DNA of 64,000 nucleotides. Source: Thermoanaerobaculia bacterium (GTDB lineage: Bacteria > Acidobacteriota > Thermoanaerobaculia > Multivoradales > JBCCEF01). Positions 778 through 34,219 of this stretch are shown here, piece by piece. The stretch covers positions 592 through 64,591 of the forward strand of contig DATACC010000228.1 in the NCBI GenBank assembly GCA_036259255.1, written 5' to 3'. The position numbers and the translations under genes are program-made. Within the stretch, counting starts at the first letter, position 1; each line of letters begins with the position of its first letter. The notes beneath the pieces are model-generated. The model made no database searches. It was not told the origin of the DNA and was given only the letters and a program-made list of their open reading frames with translations.

Positions 778-878
778 GGCGGTCGCCGAGTCTACCGTCC
801 CGCCCGAGCGGAGGTCCGCTCCCGGCCCGGTTGGGTGAAGACCCTTCTGTATACGGAGCGGAGCTAGGATCGTTTGCG

Positions 879-1781
879 ATGCCGGAGCTGCCGGAGGTGG
901 TCGCCTATCGCGAGGCGCTGGAGGCGCGGGTGGTGGGCCAGCCGCTGGAACGGGTGCGGCTGGCGAGTCCCTTCCTGCTGCGCTCGGTGGCGCCGCCGCT
1001 GACGGCGGCCGAGGGACGTCGGGTGGTGGGGCTGGCGCGGCTCGGCAAGCGCCTGGTGGTGGAGCTCGAGGAGGAGCTCTTCCTGGTGCTCCACCTGATG
1101 ATCACCGGGCGGCTGCGCTGGCGCGAGCGGGGGGCGAAGCTCCCCGGCAGGAATGGCCTCGCGGCCTTCGACTTCCCCGGGGGTACGCTGATCCTCACCG
1201 AGGCCGGCTCGAAGAAGCGCGCGTCGCTGCACGTGGTGGCGGGGCGCGGGGCCCTGGCGGAGCACGACCCCGGCGGCCTCGAAGTGCTGGCGGCCGGGCT
1301 GCCGGCGTTCCGTTCGGTGATCGCCGCCGGCAACCACACGCTGAAGCGGGCGCTCACCGATCCGCGCATCCTCTCCGGCATCGGCAACGCCTACTCCGAC
1401 GAGATCCTGCACCGCGCGCGGCTGTCGCCGTTCCGGCGCACCCGGCAGCTGGACGACGGGGAGGTCGAGCGCCTGTGGCGGGCGGCGCGGGAGGTGCTGG
1501 GGGAGTGGATCGAGCGCACCCGCGACGAGCTCGCCGGCGCCTTTCCCGAGAAGGTCACCGCCTTCCGGCCGGGATTCGCCGTGCACGGCCGGTATGGCCA
1601 GCCGTGTCCGGTCTGCGCCACGCCGGTGCAGCGCATCCTCTACGCGGAGAACGAGGCCAACTACTGCCCCACCTGCCAGACCGCCGGCAAGCTCCTGGCC
1701 GACCGCGTCCTGAGCCGCCTGATGAAGGACGACTGGCCGCGGACGCTGGAGGAGCTGGAGGCGAGGAAAGCCGGCGGCTGA
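879..1781 (+). CDS. mutM: Formamidopyrimidine-DNA glycosylase (Fpg/MutM)
   Basis: Starts MPELPEV (catalytic Pro2); C-terminal zinc finger CPVC-x16-CPTC; about 300 aa; start placed at ATG 879 inside track ORF 831..1781. Confidence 0.9.
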
Positions 1782-1873
1782 GCGTGCGGTAGCATCGCGG
1801 GCCGGCGCGATCGCCAGACGGCTCGGCTTCCCGGGCGACAGCCGGGCCTCGATGGAGCGGGTGCTGCGAACCG

Positions 1874-3250
1874 ATGCGGGTCTTCTTCACCAATCTCGGC
1901 TGCAAGCTGAACCAGGCGGAGCTCGAGCGCCTGGCGCGGGAGTTCCACGCCGCGGGGCACCGGGTCGTCGCGGAGCTCGGGGAGGCGGATCTGCACGTGG
2001 TCAACACCTGCACGGTGACCCACCTGGCGGCCCGCACGTCGCGCAAGAGGGCGCGACGCGGGGCGCGGGAGCGGCCCGGGCTGCGCACGGTGCTCACCGG
2101 CTGCTACGCCACCGGCTCGGCGGACGAGGCGGCGCGGCTCGCCGGGGTCGACCTGGTGGTGCCCAATCCGGACAAGGAGCGCCTCCTCGAGCGCGTGCAG
2201 CAAGCCTTCCCCGACCTCGCGGCCGGCGAGGGCGGAGCCCTGCCAGGCCCCCCAGCAGGCCTCGATGTCCCCTACGTGCCTCTCGCCTTCGGCAACACCC
2301 GCGCCCTGGTGAAGATCGAGGACGGCTGCAACGTCGGCTGCACGTTCTGCATCATCCCGTCGACCCGCGGCCGGCAGCGCAGCCGGCCGGTGGACGCGGT
2401 GGTGGCCGAGGTCGCGTCGATGGCCGCGGCGGGCGTCGTGGAGGTGGTGGTCACCGGGGTCCAGATCTCCCACTACCGCGACGGCGCCGCCCGCCTGCCC
2501 GACCTGGTGGCGGCGCTGCTGGAGCGCACCCGGGTACCGCGCCTGCGCCTCACCTCCATCGCGCCGTGGCGTTTCGACGAGCGCCTGCTCGAGCTGCTCG
2601 CCGAGCCGCGCCTGTGCCGCCACGTCCACCTGTCGTTGCAGAGCGGCTGCGACGCGACGCTGGCCCGCATGCGCCGCCCCTACACGGCGGCCCGCTACGC
2701 TCGCCTGGTCGAGCGCCTGCGCACCGCCGTCCCCGGTGTGGCGGTCACCACCGACGTCATCGCCGGCTTCCCCGGCGAGAGCGACGAGGAGTTCGCCGCC
2801 AGCCTCGCCTTCGTGCGTGCGATGGGCTTCGCCCGCATCCACGCCTTCCCCTACTCGGCGCGGGAGGGCACGGCGGCGGCGGCGATGCCGGACCCGGTCG
2901 CCCTCGAAGCGAAGCGGGAGCGGATGGCAGAGCTCCTGGCGGTGGCGGACGGCGCCGAGCGCGCCTTCCGCGCCGCCCAGGTCGGCGGCCGCGGCGAGGT
3001 GCTCTGGGAGAGCCGCCGCGACGGCAGGTGGCAGGGCACCACCGACACCTCCCTGCGGGTGTACGCCGACGACTCCAGGGCGGCCGGCGCCGTCGCCCTT
3101 CTCGGCAGCCTCGCCAACACCCTCACGCCGGCTCGCCTGACGGGGCTGACTGCGGATGGCCTGTCGGGCGTCCCTCTGGGCGCGGCGGCTAGTCGTTCTG
3201 CCTCGCCAGCCAGGAGACCAGGGCGCCCAGCTCCTCGTCGCTGCCCTTGA
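1874..3250 (+). CDS. MiaB/MtaB-family radical SAM tRNA methylthiotransferase
   Basis: N-terminal MTTase domain (FTNLGCKLNQ, VVNTCTVT), radical SAM CNVGCTFC, C-terminal TRAM-like region; 458 aa. Confidence 0.85.
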   Translation: MRVFFTNLGCKLNQAELERLAREFHAAGHRVVAELGEADLHVVNTCTVTHLAARTSRKRARRGARERPGLRTVLTGCYATGSADEAARLAGVDLVVPNPDKERLLERVQQAFPDLAAGEGGALPGPPAGLDVPYVPLAFGNTRALVKIEDGCNVGCTFCIIPSTRGRQRSRPVDAVVAEVASMAAAGVVEVVVTGVQISHYRDGAARLPDLVAALLERTRVPRLRLTSIAPWRFDERLLELLAEPRLCRHVHLSLQSGCDATLARMRRPYTAARYARLVERLRTAVPGVAVTTDVIAGFPGESDEEFAASLAFVRAMGFARIHAFPYSAREGTAAAAMPDPVALEAKRERMAELLAVADGAERAFRAAQVGGRGEVLWESRRDGRWQGTTDTSLRVYADDSRAAGAVALLGSLANTLTPARLTGLTADGLSGVPLGAAASRSASPARRPGRPAPRRCP

Positions 3251-3545
3251 AGGCCTTCTTGTGCTTCTCGCCGTCGATCGCGGTCTTCTGGCGCAGGTAG
3301 TCGGTGAGCACCGCCGGGGGGCGGTCCGCCACCTCGGAGAGGTCCGGGCCCCGGATCTTCTCGGACTTCACCGTCGCCTCGATGCCGGCCTTGCCCACCG
3401 CGTGACACAGGTTGCACTTCTCGTTCAGGAAGATCTGCCTGCCGTCGAGGGTCGCCTGGGCGGACGCGGAGGGCGGCGTCGCCAGAGCGGCGAGCAGACC
3501 GAAGCCGGCGGCGGAGAGCAGGAGGAAGAGGAACGGCTTGCGCAT
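3189..3545 (-). CDS. Small secreted class I cytochrome c (single CxxCH)
   Basis: MRKPFLFLLLSAAGFGLLAALA signal peptide then CNLCH heme motif; 118 aa; sits inside a longer artefactual track ORF (3189..4937). Overlaps 3' end of the methylthiotransferase ORF by 62 bp (convergent). Confidence 0.7.
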   Translation of the reverse strand: MRKPFLFLLLSAAGFGLLAALATPPSASAQATLDGRQIFLNEKCNLCHAVGKAGIEATVKSEKIRGPDLSEVADRPPAVLTDYLRQKTAIDGEKHKKAFKGSDEELGALVSWLARQND

Positions 3546-3697
3546 GGCGCCTCCTTGGATTCGCGGGGGGCGTTCCGGGGCGGAGCGCGTTCCGTCCCCG
3601 GTCGACGGCAGGGACGACTGCACCTTCCAGACCAGGCGGCATCCCGAGCGGCGAGGGGGGTGCCGGAGGCGGCGGCGCGGGACCGCGAGCAGGTTCC

Positions 3698-4396
3698 TCA
3701 GTGGATGGCCTGGGAGGGGCCGCGCTGGGGCGGGAGCAGCAAGCTGTGGCTCACGCCGCCCTCCGCCGGCACCAGCTCGGTGATGGGGTGGCGCAGGGCT
3801 TCGATGGTGCCGTCGGGGTGGCACACCAGGCCGGCGCCGAAGGGGATGCCGAGGCCGCGCACCGGCGGCCGGGCCGCCTCGACGCGGCGGCGCAGGGCCG
3901 CCCAGTCGTCCGCCTCCTCGTGGGCGCCGATCAGTGCCGGCACCAGGTTCAGGTGGTCCCAGCCCAGGTGGACGGCGCCGGCCGAGACTCCCAGCAGCAC
4001 CGCGCCGGCGGCGTAGCGCGCCAGCAGCGCCTCGCGAATGCCGGTCTGCTCGAAGATGCGCCAGGCGCGGCCGGCATCGCCGCCGGCGAGCACCACCAGG
4101 TGGGCCGATTCGAGCCACTGCCGGTCGGCCTCGCCGTAGGCGGAGCGCACCATCGCGTGCTGGTGGATGCCGGCCGCCTCCACCGCCCCCGCGAACAGGT
4201 CGTAGAAGGCGGGATCGTCGTCGTTGGCGGCACCGAGATAGGCGGCCCGCGGGTCCTCCGGCAGGCGGCGGCGGGCGATGTCGTCGAGGACCGATCCCTC
4301 GCCGCCGCGCCGGAAGAGGAGCTGGCTGTCGGCCAGCACGTACAGGGGCTGGAAGGGGCTGTCGTGGCCCGACTCGGTGCTGCCCGGCTCGCTCAC
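3698..4396 (-). CDS. Peptidase S51 family (peptidase E / cyanophycinase-like)
   Basis: VLAGGDAGRAWRIF...LLGVSAGAV motif typical of S51. GTG start at 4396 overlaps the TGA stop of the upstream hydrolase (GTGA coupling). Only the C-terminal 233 aa of track ORF 3698..5404 is coding-like. Confidence 0.65.
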   Translation of the reverse strand: MSEPGSTESGHDSPFQPLYVLADSQLLFRRGGEGSVLDDIARRRLPEDPRAAYLGAANDDDPAFYDLFAGAVEAAGIHQHAMVRSAYGEADRQWLESAHLVVLAGGDAGRAWRIFEQTGIREALLARYAAGAVLLGVSAGAVHLGWDHLNLVPALIGAHEEADDWAALRRRVEAARPPVRGLGIPFGAGLVCHPDGTIEALRHPITELVPAEGGVSHSLLLPPQRGPSQAIH

Positions 4397-5634
4397 CGCG
4401 GATCCTCCTCGCCGCCGCCCGGTTCGTTCGCTTCGATTCCGTCGTCGTCGCCGGCCGCGTCTTCGGGGGCGGCGAGCCCGAGGTCGCGGTAGAGGGCGTC
4501 GAGCACCCGGCGCACCCGCGCCTCGTGGGCGTCGGCCGCCGGCGTGCCGTTGAAGGCCAGCGCCACCGCCAGGCCGTGCTCCGGGTCGGCGAGCCCCACC
4601 ATCGAGCGGAAGCCGCTGTGGCCGTAGGTGCGTCGCGAGCAGAGATGGCCGTAGGCGTAGGGCACGGTGTCGGCGCCGTACTGCTTGGAGTCGATGATGA
4701 AGCCGAGGCCCCAGTCCATGACGTGCTGGAAGGTGTGGTCGAACAGGCCAGCCCGATGGCGCGCCACCATCGCCTCCACCGTCTGCGGCGCCACCAGGCC
4801 GCCGCCGCCGTCGAGCAGCGCCTCGTAGAAGCGGCCCAGCGAGCGCATCGGCCCCCAGCCGTTGCCGCCCGGCGAGGGACGGGTGACGCGGAGCTCGGCG
4901 TCCCAGCCCTGGTCGCGGGGGCCCTCCGCGGCGGCATCCTCCGCCGTGTCGAACACCGGTGCCAGGCGCCCGTCGTCGCGGTAGGCGCGCCAGCGCTCGG
5001 GCGGCATGCCGATCCAGGCGTCCGGCTGGCCGAGGGGCAGGAAGATCTCCTCGCGCACGTAGTCCTCGAAGCGGCGGCCGTCGAGGCGTCGGACCAGCTC
5101 GCCGAGCACGAACCAGCTCGACGCCTGGTGGTAGCCGGCCTTCTCGCCCGGTACCCACCGCGGCTCGAGCTTGCGTGCCGCGACCCGGGCGATCAGCGCC
5201 TCCCAGGGCTCGTCCGGCCAGCCGGTCTGCAGCATGCGAATCCCGGCGGTGTGGGTGAGCAGGTGGCGAATCGTCACCCGCTCCTTGCCGCCGGCGGCGA
5301 ACTCCGGCAGGTGCCGCGCCACCGGATCGTCCAGCGCCAGAAGCCCGTTCTCCCAGAGCTGGGCCACGGCGAGGGCGGCCACCGGCTTGGTGGCGGAGAG
5401 CCACAGCATCAGGTGGTCCGGGGTCAGCGGCGGCCCGCCCGGGCGCGTCACCCCGGTGGCGAGCTCGGCCACCGGTCGGCCGGCGAGGGAGACGTAGAGC
5501 TGCGCGCCGAGGTGGAGCCCCTCGCGGCGCCCCGCCTCGAGGGCCGCGACGGTGCCGGCCACCCGCTCGGCACCGCGGCCGGTGGGGCGGAGCGCGGCGG
5601 TGGCGGAGGCGCCGGTGCGGGGTTCGGTGGTCAC
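4393..5634 (-). CDS. Beta-lactamase-family serine hydrolase (class C / D-aminopeptidase-like)
   Basis: SxxK motif in LSATKPV, LLTHTAGI, HSGF region typical of beta-lactamase/PBP fold; GTG start. Confidence 0.8.
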   Translation of the reverse strand: MTTEPRTGASATAALRPTGRGAERVAGTVAALEAGRREGLHLGAQLYVSLAGRPVAELATGVTRPGGPPLTPDHLMLWLSATKPVAALAVAQLWENGLLALDDPVARHLPEFAAGGKERVTIRHLLTHTAGIRMLQTGWPDEPWEALIARVAARKLEPRWVPGEKAGYHQASSWFVLGELVRRLDGRRFEDYVREEIFLPLGQPDAWIGMPPERWRAYRDDGRLAPVFDTAEDAAAEGPRDQGWDAELRVTRPSPGGNGWGPMRSLGRFYEALLDGGGGLVAPQTVEAMVARHRAGLFDHTFQHVMDWGLGFIIDSKQYGADTVPYAYGHLCSRRTYGHSGFRSMVGLADPEHGLAVALAFNGTPAADAHEARVRRVLDALYRDLGLAAPEDAAGDDDGIEANEPGGGEEDPR

Positions 5635-5855
5635 GGAACCGATTGTCTCATCCCGCGACGGGGCGGCGGGTGCACGGGGTGGCGCGAGGGGCCGGTGCTC
5701 CGGCCCCTGCGATTCTCTGCGGGCGGCCCAGGGCCGCGGGGGTGGGTCGACGGCAGGCGGCGCCGAGGCGTCGCGTGGGGCAGGTCATGCACCACGGATG
5801 CGGTGCGGCGAGCCCCGGAAGGTATTCACTAATACGGATGAGTCTAGCAGTGCAT

Positions 5856-8078
5856 CTAGGGAGCGGCAACCGTATCTGCGGATGCGCTGCGGGGAGCGCT
5901 CACGTCGAGATGCAGCGTGCCGCCCGCGGAGAGGGTGCCGCGGTCGCAGCGGTCGACATCGGGAGGCCGGGCGCACAGCTCGTAGGTGCCGACGGCCATC
6001 GACGGCAGCACCCAGCGCCCCTGGCGGGGAAAGGTGCCGTGCATCTCGGCCCAGGCGCTGAACAGCGGCAGCGGCAGATCGATACCTTCGCGGTGCAGGC
6101 GGGCTCCCGCCTCGGCGCCGGTGAGCAGCAGCGTGCCTCCGAGCTCCGGAACCTCCAGCACCACCTCCTCCGCCGCGAGCGGATCGACCGCCAGGTCGCC
6201 GGCGGCGAAGCCGTAGGGCAGGACGACGAGGCGGATGCTCTCCACGCCCACCGGCACGTCGAGCTCGAAGCGGCCGTCGGGATCGGTGCGCGCCGACCGC
6301 ACGGGGAGCCACTTCGGCGTGGGGAGGCTCCACACCGTGACCCCCGCCAGCGGTCGGCCGCCGCCCAGGAGGATGCCCGTGATGCGGCCCGGTGGGCGCA
6401 AAACCAGGCGGACGGTGGTGACCTCACCCTCCCGCAGCTCGACCACCGCCTCCGCCGTAGCGCCGCCGAGGTGGGTCACCACCCGGTGGTGGCCCGGCGG
6501 CAAGCCGACCAGTTCGAAGCGCCCGTCCCGGAAGCCGCCTCGGCTCGTGCGGTGGGGCGGCCGCTCCTCGCGGCTCTTCACGTTGCCGGAGCGCAGCGGC
6601 CGTCCCGCCGCATCCACCACCTCGCCGCGCAGCAGGGTGTCGGGCACGACGAGCTCCACCGGCACGGGGCCCCCGTCCGTCGCCGGCTCGATGTCGATCG
6701 GGTCGAGCTCGACGAACGGTGCGCTCGGACGCAGACGGACTTTCACCTCCCAGTGCCCCGGCTCCGGCAGCACGGCCGAGAAGCGCCCGTCCTCCGGGTG
6801 CAGCCGGATCTCTCGGCTGCCGTGGCCAAAGATCAGGCCGGCCTCCACCGGCTCGCCGCCCCGCTCGACCGTGCCCTCGATCGGTACCAGCGGCAGGTCG
6901 ATCCAGACCGGCGGCGTCTCGGGTTGCACGTCCACCTCCCCGGCCCACCAGCGCTCGCCGCGGACACCAGCCCGCAGCTCGAGGTGGTACCACCCCGGCG
7001 AGAGCTGCTCGAGGCGGGCGGTACCCGTCGGATCCGTCGCCACCTCGCGATCGGGCGCCTGGCTCCGCGCCGGGTCGGCGGTGACGATCCAGGCGGCACC
7101 CTCCGGAGGCTGGGGCGGCCGCACCCTCACCTCCAGGAGGAGAGGAGGCCCCATTCGGAGCGGCTGCGCCAGGACGGCCTCCCGGCCGGACAGCACCTCG
7201 AACGGCCCGTGCACCACCGGCGCCAGCCCCTCGCCGGAAGCGAGGAGGGCATAGGAGCCCGGGCGCAGGTCGCGGAACTGGAACAGCCCATGCTCGTCCG
7301 TGGTGCTCGTCTGCTTCAGCCCGTCGAGCCGGTCCTGGCGTGGGCCGCTGTTGCCGATCTCGCTGGCGGCGACGAGCTGCACCTCCACCGGAACCACGCG
7401 CGGACTTTCGATCTCGACGAAACCGATCAGAGAGGCTCCGGGGGAGAGCACCAGCCGGTCGATGGTGGTGGTGACTCCCGCGGCGACGGTCACGTCCCAG
7501 CGGAAGATCGAGGCCCAGCCGGGCGCATGGAAGCGCAGATCGTGGAGACCCGCGGGCACCTCGCAGCTCCAGCGGCCTGCACGGATGGGGCATGGAATGA
7601 TGGCGGTGAGCGTCGTCCGTCGCCGGTCCCCCGTGCTCGCGGACAACTCCACCCGGATCTCTCCGGGGGCCTCGGCATCCTCCGCGATCGTCCTGACTTC
7701 ACCGGTGAGCTGTCCCGTCGGATGAAGGACGATGTCCACGGCGCCGGCGTCTGCGGCGACCACCACCTCCCGGGCCCACCAGCCGGGAGTTTCCGAGCGC
7801 ACGCGCCACAGCGAGCCCTCTGCGACCTCGACCCCGAACGTACGAGAGCCCCGAATGGGCACCACCACCTCTTCGAGGCCCGCGGCGGACGCCCCGTCGG
7901 CGGGGAGTAGGCGAAGCACGCCCTGAAGCGGTGCGGGTTCGGCGGCTCCCGAAACGGTAAGCACCTGGATCTCCAGGGTGACCGCTCCGGCGGCCAGGCT
8001 CGGCCACGGGATCGCCACGAGAACCGCGGCGGCAATCGCGCCACCCGCGATCCTGCGGCGGCTCACGTGGAGTAACAC
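5856..8078 (-). CDS. Large secreted protein with multiple carboxypeptidase-regulatory-like (CarboxypepD_reg / Cna-B-like) beta-sandwich repeats
   Basis: Repeated motifs TDEHGLFQFRDLRPGSY, TDPDGRFELDVPVG, TDPTGTARLEQLSPGWY; N-terminal RRR-containing signal-like segment. True start may be GTG at 8066 (VSRRRIAGG...), which overlaps the TGA of an upstream Cys-rich frame. Confidence 0.75.
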   Translation of the reverse strand: MLLHVSRRRIAGGAIAAAVLVAIPWPSLAAGAVTLEIQVLTVSGAAEPAPLQGVLRLLPADGASAAGLEEVVVPIRGSRTFGVEVAEGSLWRVRSETPGWWAREVVVAADAGAVDIVLHPTGQLTGEVRTIAEDAEAPGEIRVELSASTGDRRRTTLTAIIPCPIRAGRWSCEVPAGLHDLRFHAPGWASIFRWDVTVAAGVTTTIDRLVLSPGASLIGFVEIESPRVVPVEVQLVAASEIGNSGPRQDRLDGLKQTSTTDEHGLFQFRDLRPGSYALLASGEGLAPVVHGPFEVLSGREAVLAQPLRMGPPLLLEVRVRPPQPPEGAAWIVTADPARSQAPDREVATDPTGTARLEQLSPGWYHLELRAGVRGERWWAGEVDVQPETPPVWIDLPLVPIEGTVERGGEPVEAGLIFGHGSREIRLHPEDGRFSAVLPEPGHWEVKVRLRPSAPFVELDPIDIEPATDGGPVPVELVVPDTLLRGEVVDAAGRPLRSGNVKSREERPPHRTSRGGFRDGRFELVGLPPGHHRVVTHLGGATAEAVVELREGEVTTVRLVLRPPGRITGILLGGGRPLAGVTVWSLPTPKWLPVRSARTDPDGRFELDVPVGVESIRLVVLPYGFAAGDLAVDPLAAEEVVLEVPELGGTLLLTGAEAGARLHREGIDLPLPLFSAWAEMHGTFPRQGRWVLPSMAVGTYELCARPPDVDRCDRGTLSAGGTLHLDVSAPRSASADTVAAP

Positions 8079-8259
8079 CTGTTGGTGTTTTCGCAGGGAG
8101 TCCCGCCGCCGGAAACCGAGCAGTTCACATAGCCGTCACCGCCCACGTTGCCTTGGCAAATCAAAGGATAGCCGGGCTGTCGTCGTCGATCGAGCATTCG
8201 TTGCAGCTGGAACAAGCTCCCGAAGGACAGTCGTTCAGCCACGGATCACAAGGCTCCGG
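8064..8259 (-). pseudogene. Cys-rich coding-like continuation of the small ORF: same frame after TAG gives PEPCDPWLNDCPSGACSSCNECSIDDDSPAIL; after TGA and a frameshift gives ICQGNVGGDGYVNCSVSGGGTPCENTNRCYST. Likely a disrupted Cys-rich secreted protein gene, or assembly errors
   Basis: Cys/Asn/Asp/Gly-rich translation continues across one amber stop and one frame change. Final TGA (8064..8066) overlaps GTG start of the large downstream gene. Confidence 0.3.
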
Positions 8260-8364
8260 CTAGTGCTCCTCGCATCCGAAGGGGGCACAGCCCTGAGCTT
8301 CGACGGACGCCGGCACTGCCACCAGGAAGCAGCCGAAGAAAAGAAGCAGACGGGGCATGCTCAT
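8260..8364 (-). CDS. Small secreted Cys-containing peptide ORF (MSMPRLLLFFGCFLVAVPASVEA-QGCAPFGCEEH), 34 aa, ends at in-frame TAG
   Basis: Perfect RBS AAGGAG plus 7 nt plus ATG; signal peptide; lies in a lower-GC AT-richer intergenic patch. Not in ORF track (below 60 aa). Confidence 0.4.
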   Translation of the reverse strand: MSMPRLLLFFGCFLVAVPASVEAQGCAPFGCEEH

Positions 8365-8385
8365 GGGCTAGCTCCTTTTGCTTTT

Positions 8386-8425
8386 AAGCCGAGCATAAGC
8401 AACAACGGTACTCCCGGTCAAGTCG
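8386..8425 (-). promoter_or_regulatory. Candidate sigma70-like promoter (TTGACC, 18 nt spacer, TATGCT) for the small Cys ORF / large secreted protein operon, in the divergent region shared with the ClC gene
   Basis: Read on minus strand: ttgacc gggagtaccgttgttgct tatgct about 25 nt upstream of the AAGGAG RBS. Confidence 0.3.
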
Positions 8426-8450
8426 TGATCCCCTGATAGATTCGGCCATC

Positions 8451-30652: not shown

Positions 30653-33600
30653 TCAGTGCCAGACGCCCTGCAGCGTGAACGGAGCCCAGTAATAGGGAGC
30701 GCTCCAGCGCTCCTCACGAACCATCGAAAGCTGCGCCTCCCGCAGCGCTGCGGCCGGCGGCAGGCCCGCATGGAGGATGCCGCCGTAGAAGCGGGTCATC
30801 ACCTCGGCGGTGGCGCGGTCCTGCACGTCCCACAGGCTCGCCACCACGCGCGCGGCGCCCGCGTACATGAAGCCGCGGGTCAGCCCCACCAGCCCCTCCC
30901 CGCGCACCTCCTGTCCCAGCGCCGTGCTGCAGGCGCTCAGGGTCACCAGGTCGGCGTTGAGATCGAGGCCGTAGATGTCGTGGAGGCGCAGGAAGCCCTC
31001 CGCCGGACGGCCCGCCTCGTCGACCAACGACAGCACCAGCCCGGAGAGCTCCGGCACGTCGCCGTGGAGCACCCCGTGGGTGGCGAAGTGGACGAAGCGG
31101 TAGTCGGCCAGCCGGGGCCCGGTGACCGCCTCGCGGGAGGCGGCGAAGTCGAGGGCCACCAGCCGTTCGGACGGCGGCACCAGCTCGGCGATGCGCTCGC
31201 CCTCCTGGCGCGAGAAGCGCAGCCGCCGGTAGTCGAGGGCCGGGGGCGCCGCCCGGCGCTCGGCCGCGAGTTGCACGCCGCCGCCGGCGCCGGCCTGCTG
31301 CGCGGCGGCGCGCGCCACCCGGGGGTCCGAAGGGTGGAACACCGGATCGGCGAACACCGCCAGCAGGCGGCTGGGCGCGGTGCGCTCGGCCATCTCCTGG
31401 CGCAGCAGCACGGCCACCGAGGCCGACGGCAGGTTGACGATCTCGTGGGAGGCGATCAGCGGCTGCGGACCCGTCCCGCCGCCCGGCGAGGACGGGTCCG
31501 CGAGGGCCGCGAACGGCACCAGGTGCAGGGCGCCGTCGGCGACCACCACCAGGCGGCGGTCGCCGAGACGCCCGGCCGCGGGAGCGAGCACCATCTCCGA
31601 CAGCGCCGCCGCCTCGGCGGCCAGCGCCGCGGCGCCGTCGGCCGTCGGCGCCGCGCTCAGGAGCTGGTGAAAGCGGCGCGCGCGCTGCTCGATGGCGGCG
31701 CGGCCGGGCAGCTCGTAACTGGTCAGCCCGTCGGTGCCGAGCACCCAGAGGAAGCTGCGCTCCTCGGCCAGGCTGTACTCGAGCAGCAGCGTGGCGTCGT
31801 CGGTCAGCACCCGGGTGCGCAGCTCGGCGGCGGACAGCGGCGCCGCGGTCAGCGCCGCCCAGCGCGGATCGGTGAGGCGGATCTCCGACTCCAGGAACTG
31901 CAGGTCGTTCTGCACCCGGCGGATCTCCAACTCCAGGCGCTCGATCTCCGCCGCGCCGCCGGACGGCAACGCCTGCGCCGTCTTGTCCTCGGCGTCGTCG
32001 AGCTCCAGGCGGCGCCGAGCGAGACCGTTGAGCTGGCGCCGCAGACCCTCCTCGCGGCGGGCGAGCTCCGGATCGAGGCCGCGGCGCAGCTCCATGCTGG
32101 CCTCGCCGAGCAGGTCGAGCAGGGTGCGCGCCCGCGCCCGTTCGCTGACCGCCAGCGCCTCGCCGTCCCATCCCGCCGCACCGTCGCGGCGGTGCAGCTC
32201 CATCAGCAGGTCGATCAGCTCCTGGTAGTGCTCCTGGCGGTGGGCGAGGTAGCTGGTGCGCAGCTCCTGGACGGCCACCGCGCGGCGCACCTGTTCGCTG
32301 CGGTCGAGGGCCTCCTCCAGGGTCTCGCGGGCGGCATCGAGGCGCCCCAGGGCGCGCTCCGAGCGGGCCCGCTGCAGCAGGTCGCCGACCACCGTCAGGC
32401 TGCCGGTGCCTTGGCTGAAGGCGAAGGCCGCCGCGAAGTGCTCCAGCGCTTCGGCGTGGCGGCCGCGGCGCGCTTCCACCCGGCCCAGGTAGTGGCGCAG
32501 GCGCGCCACCTGGGGGCGCAGACTCTGGCCCTCGGCGCGGGCCAGGCTCTGGCGCAGGTGCTGCTCGGCGGCGGCCAGGCGGTCGGCTTCGAGCTCCGCC
32601 ACGCCGACGGCGAGCAGCACCTGGATCTCGGCCTGCGGATCGTCGACCCGCTCCAGGGCGGCGAGGGCCCGCTCGAGGTGGGGCAGGGCCTCGGCGGGAC
32701 GGTCGCGCAGCACGAAGGTCCACGCCAGGTTGGACAGCGCCAGCGCCTCGGCGCGGGGGTCGTCGCTCTCGCGGGCCAGCGCCACGCTCTCGGTGAAGAA
32801 GTGCTCCGCCTCGTCGTTCTCGCCCATCAGGTGGTGCAGGTTGCCGATGTTGCTCACCGCCACCGCCTGGGCGCGGCGATTGCCGCTGTCGCGGGCGATC
32901 TCGCGCACCTCGCGGTAGCTGGCGAGGGCCTCCTGCACCCGACCCTGGTACTCGTAGACGGTGCCCAGGTTGTTCAGCGCCCCGGTCAGCACCGAGCGGT
33001 CGCCGTCGGAGCGGGCGATCTCGAGGGCGCGTTCGAAGTGACCGACCGCCTCCTCGACCCGGCCCAGGTGGATCAGCAGCATTCCGAGATTGTTGAGCGA
33101 GAGCGACTCGCCACCCCGGTCCTCCAACGCGCGGTGCAGCTCGATCGCGCGAGCCAGCTCGGCCAGGGCCGCGGGATAGTCGCCGCGGCGGCGGTGGAAG
33201 GTGCCGGCGCTCTGGTAGGCGAAGGCGAGATCGTCGGTGGCGCCGGCGTCCTCGAGCCGCGCCAGGGCCTCGCGGAAGCGGCGGTCGGCCTGCTCGCCGT
33301 CGCCGGCCCGTACCGCCGCGCGGGCGAGGTGGAGCAGCGACTTGCCCTCGCCGGCGGCGTCGCCGGCCTCCCGCCACAGGGCGAGGGCCTCCTCGAAGGC
33401 GGCGGTGGCGGCCTCGGGCTCTTCGAGCACGCTGTAGAGCCGGGCGAGGTCGTGGAGCACCCAGGCCTGTCGCCGCCGATCGCCCAGCTCGCGCCACAGC
33501 GTCGCGGCCTCGCGGTGGGCGGCCACGGCGCGCCGCCGCCGCTCCGGATCGCGGGTGGTCCAGGCGAGCAGGGAGGCTTCGTACTGGGCGCGCTCGGCGG

Positions 33601-34123
33601 CCACCCGGCGCTCGTCGCCCGGGGCGGCGGGGCGCCGCGCCTCGAGACGCAGAAGGTAGCTGCCGGCGCTATCCTCCCCCGCCACCACCTCCAGCCGATG
33701 CAGGCCCGCCGCCCCGGCCAGGTAGGAGAGGGTCTCGGCACCCCACTCCCCGCTGGTGCTGTCGATCTCGGCCGCCGGCATGCCCGCCGCATCGAGCAGC
33801 CGCAGCGACAGGTCGACGCCGCGCTGGTCGACGATCACGCGCAGGAAGTCACCGGCGGCCAGCATCACCGTCCAGGCGTGGGCGGCGGGGCCGGCGATGC
33901 GCCACTCGGCGGCGGCACCGAGGGGCGGCAGCGCCGCCGCCTCGGGTGCGGCGCCGGGGCCCGGCTCGGCCGGGCGTGCGGTCTCGGCTGGGCCGCCTTC
34001 GGGGAGCTCGGCCCGGGGCTGCTTTTCAGCCGTGATCGGGAGGGCGGCCAGCAGGCAGAGCATCGCCGCGGCCAGGAGCGAGCGGAGCGACGGCGGGGGC
34101 TGGAGGCGACCGTGCCGCATCAT
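30653..34123 (-). CDS. Secreted TPR-repeat protein with C-terminal CHAT (caspase-like) protease domain and an N-terminal PPC-like beta domain
   Basis: Signal peptide after MMRHG; many TPR-like AxxxxxAL repeats; CHAT catalytic dyad context FVHFATHG and LVTLSACSTALG; about 1157 aa. Confidence 0.8.
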   Translation of the reverse strand: MMRHGRLQPPPSLRSLLAAAMLCLLAALPITAEKQPRAELPEGGPAETARPAEPGPGAAPEAAALPPLGAAAEWRIAGPAAHAWTVMLAAGDFLRVIVDQRGVDLSLRLLDAAGMPAAEIDSTSGEWGAETLSYLAGAAGLHRLEVVAGEDSAGSYLLRLEARRPAAPGDERRVAAERAQYEASLLAWTTRDPERRRRAVAAHREAATLWRELGDRRRQAWVLHDLARLYSVLEEPEAATAAFEEALALWREAGDAAGEGKSLLHLARAAVRAGDGEQADRRFREALARLEDAGATDDLAFAYQSAGTFHRRRGDYPAALAELARAIELHRALEDRGGESLSLNNLGMLLIHLGRVEEAVGHFERALEIARSDGDRSVLTGALNNLGTVYEYQGRVQEALASYREVREIARDSGNRRAQAVAVSNIGNLHHLMGENDEAEHFFTESVALARESDDPRAEALALSNLAWTFVLRDRPAEALPHLERALAALERVDDPQAEIQVLLAVGVAELEADRLAAAEQHLRQSLARAEGQSLRPQVARLRHYLGRVEARRGRHAEALEHFAAAFAFSQGTGSLTVVGDLLQRARSERALGRLDAARETLEEALDRSEQVRRAVAVQELRTSYLAHRQEHYQELIDLLMELHRRDGAAGWDGEALAVSERARARTLLDLLGEASMELRRGLDPELARREEGLRRQLNGLARRRLELDDAEDKTAQALPSGGAAEIERLELEIRRVQNDLQFLESEIRLTDPRWAALTAAPLSAAELRTRVLTDDATLLLEYSLAEERSFLWVLGTDGLTSYELPGRAAIEQRARRFHQLLSAAPTADGAAALAAEAAALSEMVLAPAAGRLGDRRLVVVADGALHLVPFAALADPSSPGGGTGPQPLIASHEIVNLPSASVAVLLRQEMAERTAPSRLLAVFADPVFHPSDPRVARAAAQQAGAGGGVQLAAERRAAPPALDYRRLRFSRQEGERIAELVPPSERLVALDFAASREAVTGPRLADYRFVHFATHGVLHGDVPELSGLVLSLVDEAGRPAEGFLRLHDIYGLDLNADLVTLSACSTALGQEVRGEGLVGLTRGFMYAGAARVVASLWDVQDRATAEVMTRFYGGILHAGLPPAAALREAQLSMVREERWSAPYYWAPFTLQGVWH

Positions 34124-34219
34124 CGAGACATCCTGCAGGTTACCGAGTGGTCCCCATGCTAGAAGCGAGGGCGGCGCGTGTAAAGCGCGGGAGTCGCGGA
34201 GCAACTCCGCCGGCGGCGC

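Follow-up and report, generated by a model that had tools for sequence, protein, structure and literature searches.

A probable recent pseudogene of a small exported cysteine-rich protein, and intact small and large gene pairs related to it, in a Thermoanaerobaculia bacterium and other lineages

Disulfide-rich mini-proteins are uncommon in bacteria. Among those described, the cis-defensins (CS-alpha-beta) of Myxococcota and others carry a CxxxC...CxC signature and an alpha-helix and are usually cationic (PMC11561630). The subject of this report is a locus in a 64,000-nucleotide (nt) stretch from a Thermoanaerobaculia bacterium (Acidobacteriota; assembly GCA_036259255.1, contig DATACC010000228.1), hereafter the window, the minus strand of which at 8364-8063 probably holds the recent pseudogene of a small exported Cys-rich protein, while relatives keep an intact pair of this gene and a gene for a large secreted beta-sandwich protein. 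Like the cis-defensins, the small proteins of this locus and its relatives are short, carry a signal peptide, are candidates for multiple disulfides and come from high-GC Gram-negatives, with six Cys in minimal members. However, they show the arrangement CxxC...C...C-x6-8-C-x5-C without CxxxC...CxC, their mature parts are acidic (net charge -1 to -16) rather than cationic, and AlphaFold2 (AF2), at low confidence, predicts beta strands but no helix for the mature part of the small protein. They also have no Pfam match and are always paired with a large beta-sandwich protein. A defensin-like antimicrobial was therefore ruled against, on the acidic charge and the missing CxxxC/CxC signature.

The large partner resembles the rods built from CarboxypepD_reg, CnaB and transthyretin-like domains. 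It matches Pfam CarboxypepD_reg (PF13620) in three significant stretches (E 2.2e-33; 114.9 bits, where the gathering cut-off is 32.3) and thus belongs to that family, and its AF2 model is an all-beta string of sandwiches with a predicted local distance difference test (pLDDT) score of 77.5. When this model was compared by Foldseek, solely beta-sandwich strings were returned (TIE protein 6fwv of B. anthracis, TEP1, Gram-positive pilins and CnaB repeats), and the best PDB matches also comprise MSCRAMM B-repeats and NOMO-like proteins, although the global template modelling (TM) scores, normalised by query length, do not exceed 0.16. Unlike the Gram-positive rod proteins, the large partner is found in a metagenome-assembled genome (MAG) of a diderm Acidobacteriota, and the pilin, MSCRAMM, TIE and NOMO-like systems are not known to have a small Cys-rich partner cistron. 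A sortase signal or a thioester or isopeptide signature was not noticed in the large partner, no search aimed at these having been made. The geometry of the pair is similar to that of operons in which small and large subunits are coupled by ATGA or GTGA overlaps, with a 4-nt GTGA in the window and in its closest relative and tight spacing elsewhere; the difference is that here coupling and complex formation are suggested by the gene geometry, and that in the window the coupling would be broken by a TAG. Considered by itself, the window locus is similar to an ordinary bacterial pseudogene, that is, a non-essential accessory gene with a nonsense mutation and a frameshift, in having an intact orthologue in a close relative, two disabling lesions, retained regulatory signals and still visible past purifying selection. 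Unlike the ordinary case, the parent gene belongs to no described family, and its loss would uncouple the translation of a conserved downstream partner.

A sequence-only reading of this DNA had pointed out a disrupted Cys-rich reading frame in an AT-richer patch, behind a typical ribosome-binding site and a signal peptide, with a TAG following QGCAPFGCEEH and a same-frame continuation to a TGA. When the minus strand from 7700 to 8700 was read together with its listed open reading frames (ORFs), all of these elements were present. Their positions are given below, together with those fixed by DNA alignment with L001, the contig that encodes the intact orthologue P0001.

8421-8416 and 8397-8392, minus strand: promoter-like site TTGACC, 18 nt, TATGCT (consensus scan; one site against 0.1 expected)
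8377-8372, minus strand: Shine-Dalgarno (SD) sequence AAGGAG, then 7 nt and ATG 8364-8362 (direct reading of the sequence)
8364-8260, minus strand: 34-codon remnant ORF, MSMPRLLLFFGCFLVAVPASVEAQGCAPFGCEEH, with TAG; aligns with residues 9-43 of P0001
8364-8296, minus strand: signal peptide MSMPRLLLFFGCFLVAVPASVEA, part of the remnant ORF
C-terminal part of the remnant ORF, minus strand: QGCAPFGCEEH, 11 mature residues
8262-8260, minus strand: premature stop TAG, where the orthologue has CAG (Gln), from the alignment of window and L001
8259-8177, minus strand: second segment, PEPCDPWLNDCPSGACSSCNECSIDDD(S), original frame; aligns codon for codon with residues 45-72 of P0001
8177/8176: 1-nt deletion, AG-CCCGGC in the window and AGTCCCGGC in L001; the frame is shifted downstream
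8176-8063, minus strand: third segment, PGYPLICQGNVGGDGYVNCSVSGGGTPCENTNRCYST, with TGA (8065-8063), shifted frame; domain core and C-terminal Cys pattern
8152-8150, minus strand: GGC (Gly) in the window, TGC (Cys) in the orthologue
8066-5856, minus strand: partner gene, an intact 736-amino-acid (aa) secreted protein with GTG start at 8066-8064 and an N-terminal signal peptide

The signal peptide of the small gene has a positively charged n-region, a hydrophobic core of 12 residues and V-E-A preceding the likely cleavage site, and the 34-codon ORF is reported by the Logan gene caller (P0003). Beyond the TAG, the original frame reads PEPCDPWLNDCPSGACSSCNECSIDDDSPAIL up to the TGA at 8163-8161, and the second segment is outside the translation from ATG 8364. 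The shifted frame ...GYPLICQGNVGGDGYVNCSVSGGGTPCENTNRCYST ends in the TGA at 8065-8063, which overlaps the GTG of the large ORF as GTGA (8066-8063). The Cys-rich continuation after a frame shift thus stands as first read, whereas the break itself is the deletion at 8177/8176, 15 nt upstream of the TGA where it had been placed. The number of Cys had been overestimated as well: the three segments hold 12 rather than about 16, one of them inside the signal peptide. Nevertheless, 11 Cys in 77 mature residues correspond to a binomial P of about 1e-9 against the window background of 1.1% Cys, and since an intact orthologue also exists, the Cys-rich reading is not a product of chance. The patch has a GC content of 0.60-0.64, compared with 0.72-0.78 in the flanks, and the GC content at third codon positions (GC3) is 0.77, 0.64 and 0.74 in the three segments, compared with 0.87-0.96 in the neighbouring genes.

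The concatenated translation of the three segments, used as a query, matched a single protein, P0001, with an E of 1.9e-43, and the single ORF that the sequence-only reading had proposed to look for in a relative was thereby found. P0001 is 109 aa as called and comes from JGI metagenome 3300080737 (ORF L001:832-1137). Over 2.5 kb, L001 and the window are collinear and share about 90% nt identity, and the order of genes is the same: a CLC channel gene lies upstream in divergent orientation, and the large gene follows downstream, with the 4-nt GTGA overlap. According to the DNA alignment, L001 holds an uninterrupted ORF from the ATG homologous to that at 8364; at the positions of the two lesions it has CAG and an extra base. 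Once both lesions are repaired, all three segments of the window are 76-79% identical to P0001 at the aa level, and 11 of the 12 mature Cys of P0001 are conserved; an in-frame 3-nt indel separates the two sequences directly behind the signal peptide. A tblastn search with P0001 splits the match into two high-scoring segment pairs at the frame break. The mature window protein has an odd number of Cys (11, compared with 12 in the orthologue), owing to the Gly codon at 8152-8150, where Cys would be the ancestral state. These results favor a recently inactivated gene for a Cys-rich secreted protein, which had been one of the options offered from the sequence.

The divergence between window and L001 also bears on the time of inactivation. 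In the small gene, the non-synonymous rate (dN) is 0.118 and the synonymous rate (dS) 0.54, giving a dN/dS of 0.22, and the part downstream of the TAG gives 0.25; non-synonymous changes are far below the neutral expectation both in the whole gene (P = 1.3e-5) and past the TAG (P = 7.6e-4). Most of the divergence therefore arose while the gene was functional, which points to a recent inactivation. Divergence also peaks locally at the small gene, with a nt identity of 76-85% compared with 90-98% in the flanking genes, and a dS of 0.54 compared with 0.12-0.23 in the flanks (window 8063-8450 against L001:700-1137). The promoter region is less than 50% identical between the two and has indels of 18 nt and 5 nt. 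This peak could be due to relaxed codon bias, diversifying pressure or allele exchange. The promoter-like site listed above is in the divergent intergenic region shared with the CLC channel gene; its TTGACC is conserved in L001, and the spacer and the -10 region are not. Judged from its agreement with the consensus, it may act as a sigma-70-like promoter. The Rfam search gave no credible RNA in the whole window (gathering thresholds) or in 7900-8600 (E<=10), and a riboswitch or small RNA as the cause of the AT-richer patch was dropped for this reason.

Some points weigh against inactivation as described above: only one intact orthologue is known, the dN/dS is pairwise and without an outgroup cannot be assigned to one lineage, and the independent evidence for the lesions has its limits. 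This evidence is the Logan contig L002 (SRR13837113), which is 100% identical to window 5279-8923 over 3,645 bp, both lesions included, and makes an error of the assembler unlikely; however, L002 may share reads with the MAG of the window, and a systematic read error would be present in both. The source is indeed a MAG, as seen from the annotation of the public large-gene product P0004 ('MAG TPA ... Thermoanaerobaculia bacterium'), the deletion adjoins a short C/G run (AGCCCGGC), and the substitutions still look constrained, all of which would be expected if the gene were intact in the organism and the TAG and missing base were sequencing or assembly errors. In contrast, it would be unusual for two unlike errors and a Cys to Gly change to fall within 300 nt, given that the surrounding 3.6 kb has none, and a substitution that creates a stop is not typical of consensus errors. 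Together with the exact agreement of the two assemblies, this leaves such errors, which the sequence-only reading had listed as an option, decidedly unlikely.

A gene kept functional by recoding was weighed in the same way. It would need read-through or pyrrolysine insertion at TAG 8262-8260 and a -1 frameshift near 8177, that is, two independent events within 90 nt, and the Cys pattern kept in the downstream segments and the low dN/dS past the TAG would agree with it. Such events are normally conserved among orthologues, whereas the uninterrupted orthologue needs none of them. TAG ends 11 of the 34 high-GC3 ORFs of the window and is therefore an ordinary stop in this genome, and no slippery heptamer (X XXY YYZ) is found at the frame break, C CCG GCT, and no RNA family was detected there by Rfam. 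Programmed recoding, also raised by the sequence-only reading, is for these reasons very unlikely, with a probability close to negligible. It has also been considered that the 34-codon ORF is a functional gene in its own right, whose secreted product would be QGCAPFGCEEH, a peptide of 11 residues in which one disulfide is possible, and that the segments downstream are relics. Its SD, ATG and signal peptide are intact, the ORF is reported by a gene caller and the promoter-like site is still there, but the truncation deletes the entire C-terminal Cys core common to the lineages, the truncated form is absent from the other members of the searched protein collection, and the stub by itself, with too few sites, shows no sign of being under selection. 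We give this explanation only a very slim chance. Pseudogenisation is thus the explanation retained in what follows.

The start of the partner gene at GTG 8066, proposed earlier from the sequence, agrees with two independent gene calls (JGI and Logan) and is conserved in L001. The 736-aa protein is 100% identical to P0004, the NCBI product of the Thermoanaerobaculia MAG. P0004 (567 aa) begins at an internal GTG (…EV|PAGLHDLRF) and lacks the signal peptide and the first 169 residues; the public product appears to be truncated at the N-terminus. Only a few homologues of the large partner can be detected (P0005-P0008, 27-34% identity). Neither the 740-aa ORF (start 8078) nor P0004 had a record in an exact look-up, and of the 91 pattern matches that the 740-aa query gave in a scan of genome contigs, none was confirmed. 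No paralogue of the small or the large gene is present within the window.

Full-length homologues of the large protein (26-34% identity) were found in four further lineages, together with a more distant paralogue, and in every readable contig a small ORF with an SD sequence, a signal peptide and 6-12 Cys is located directly upstream. The SD sequences are comparable to AAGGAG, and the cistrons, which overlap as GTGA in the window and L001, are at most about 35 nt apart or overlap at the other loci. The pair was seen at window/L001, L083 (twice), L084/L090, L087/L089 and L088; the small ORFs outside window/L001 are as follows.

L083:848-1210: small ORF of 120 aa, large gene of 754 aa downstream
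L083:8025-7672: small ORF of 117 aa, large gene of 734 aa downstream (distant paralogue)
L084:2494-2787: small ORF of 97 aa, large gene of 747 aa downstream
L087:1964-2341: small ORF of 125 aa, large gene of 778 aa downstream
L088:309-536: small ORF of 75 aa, large gene of 760 aa downstream
L089:8001-8378: P0011, small ORF found by the small-protein profile, before a 777-aa large homologue
L090:16-255: P0012, profile-found, the same small protein as in L084 but called shorter in another sample, before the large gene

On L083 (12.7 kb), two small and large modules are present, at 848-3484 (plus strand) and 5433-8025 (minus strand), and at L084:2494-7192 (plus strand) two large paralogues in tandem, with 34% identity to each other, come after one small gene. 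These arrangements indicate that the module duplicates within genomes. The small-protein family is very rare. Among 5.8 billion protein clusters searched by word index, and 1.84 billion cluster representatives (from about 15 billion proteins) searched by phmmer, about 7 loci were found, and at each of them the small gene, as first cistron, precedes the gene of a homologous large protein. No description of such a gene pair was found in the literature, and the small protein has no relevant Pfam match at E<=10, no NCBIfam family (the sole match is signal-peptide-like, E 0.03) and no significant sequence match in PDB (best E 0.96). The suggestion that a small Cys-rich partner of a large beta-sandwich protein had gone undescribed is thus borne out, and the pair is seen to recur. 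Some further scans were uninformative or negative: a scan of genome contigs with CarB gave a Cys-rich homologue at 0 of 80 loci, chance pattern matches swamped a scan of metagenome contigs with alignment A2, and a degenerate DNA pattern for VGGDGYVNC had no match, L001 included, in a collection that is without the sample of L001.

Whether the small proteins of the different lineages form one family was examined by composition, spacing and profile scores. The Cys enrichment of each small protein is significant (P 1e-4 to 1e-10 against the 1.1% background), the C-terminal spacing C-x6-8-C-x5-C is common to five lineages, and the last Cys is 3-4 residues from the end in four of the five, with a longer tail in L087/L089. 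Upstream of this, a CxxC and a G-[YW]-x-x-C motif recur. When each lineage was left out in turn and scored with a hidden Markov model (HMM) against composition-preserving shuffles, three lineages were significant (p = 0.004, 0.01 and 0.0095), and the family profile retrieved a new member, P0011, again before a large homologue.

The direct comparison of sequences tells less favorably on a single family. The leave-one-out scores of three others, L083a, L088 and L083b, were not significant (the p values among them being 0.12, 0.14 and 0.83), the columns of the MAFFT alignment are unstable except at the C-terminus, and phmmer with P0001 against the representatives gave no small protein of another lineage. 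The AF2 model of P0001 is also unreliable (pLDDT 54). Judged by sequence, the small proteins from one lineage to another are only marginally homologous, and the case for a family or module rests mainly on position, export signal and composition. The upstream Cys-rich ORFs might be unrelated genes, alike in position and composition by convergence or chance. We consider this unlikely, for the SD sequence, the signal peptide, the 6-12 Cys, the acidity and the tight spacing to a homologous large gene are found in all lineages examined, and the three leave-one-out tests at p<=0.01 and the retrieval of P0011 argue in the same direction. Apart from the 34-aa ORF of the window, the search with P0001 returned only P0002, a protein of 462 aa with three repeats of about 116 aa, which matched at E 5.9e-9 (SVDPESPGYFAVFPC against SIDYESPGYFFIC). 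P0002 is not Cys-rich, and the shared ESPGYF..C is probably a fortuitous local motif.

Two other identities of the small protein were considered and rejected. The precursors of ribosomally synthesised and post-translationally modified peptides (RiPPs) have a leader without a Sec signal and are encoded next to modifying enzymes such as radical SAM proteins, cyclodehydratases or lanthionine synthetases. The small genes have a Sec-type signal peptide at all loci and no modifying enzyme that recurs across loci; in the window, the neighbours are the CLC channel, the CarboxypepD_reg protein and a beta-lactamase-family protein. A lipoprotein was rejected since the Cys of FFGC, only 11 residues away from the N-terminus, falls in the middle of the hydrophobic region, and further hydrophobic residues and the signal-peptidase I site VEA|Q come after it.

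From these elements the following course can be proposed for the locus. The ancestral product would have been about 100 aa long, with a Sec-type signal peptide, cleaved behind VEA, and a mature domain that was acidic, about 77 aa in length and endowed with 12 Cys. In the periplasm it may fold into a compact, beta-rich domain, the core of 6 Cys forming three disulfides or a metal site, and 6 more Cys, for three more disulfides, being possibly added in the lineage of the window. The intact small gene would be the first cistron, and the second would encode the secreted string of CarboxypepD_reg beta-sandwiches of about 740 aa. Both products carry a Sec-type signal, and the geometry of the genes is consistent with a small protein made in fixed proportion with the large one, the two acting as a co-produced periplasmic or extracellular complex. 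In the genome of the window, the change from CAG to TAG and the 1-nt deletion would disable the small gene, so that only a 34-codon stub could be translated from the original SD and ATG, and the small partner would be lost. The TAG would also halt ribosomes 194 nt upstream of GTG 8066, and if coupling is lost in this way, the large gene has only its own weak SD to depend on.

Elsewhere in the window are chromosomal housekeeping genes, among them those for CarB, fumarase and methylmalonyl-CoA mutase, and the best matches of CarB among the GTDB species representatives are Thermoanaerobaculia with 60-63% identity. Other ORFs are recorded here for completeness. The C-terminal part (about 3189-3560) of the ORF at 3189-4937 (minus strand) looks like a small exported c-type cytochrome, with signal peptide MRKPFLFLLLSAAGFGLLA... 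and a CNLCH haem motif, and lies downstream of a beta-lactamase-family gene (4393-5634; Pfam) and a putative peptidase S51-like ORF. At 30653-34219 (minus strand), a protein of 1,188 aa with TPR and CHAT domains is encoded, which is unrelated to the small gene, and the 753-aa ORF at 16199-18460 (plus strand) has no Pfam match at E<=1e-5 and is not a paralogue of the 736-aa protein.

As a dead gene, the copy in the window is a case of routine genome decay, and its value is that it points to the intact form. The pseudogene itself is ordinary; the gene pair is mildly new, in that it is undescribed and rare. The locus also illustrates two problems of annotation, a public large product that seems truncated at the N-terminus and a small gene reduced to a 34-aa call. 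The intact form defines a small exported Cys-rich family without relatives in Pfam, NCBIfam or PDB, and its conserved operonic partner offers a concrete hypothesis for co-expression and structural work. It is possible, and we put this forward tentatively as something rather doubtful, that uncultivated high-GC bacteria, Thermoanaerobaculia among them, have in this pair an undescribed two-component secreted system. In it, a fast-evolving acidic mini-protein with 6-12 Cys, held by disulfides or binding a metal and translationally coupled to a beta-sandwich rod of about 740 aa, would serve as the specificity or ligand-binding subunit of a scaffold in the periplasm or at the surface. Such a subunit may be quickly lost or diversified, and the pseudogene in the window and the peak of divergence between close relatives would then be two outcomes of this tendency.

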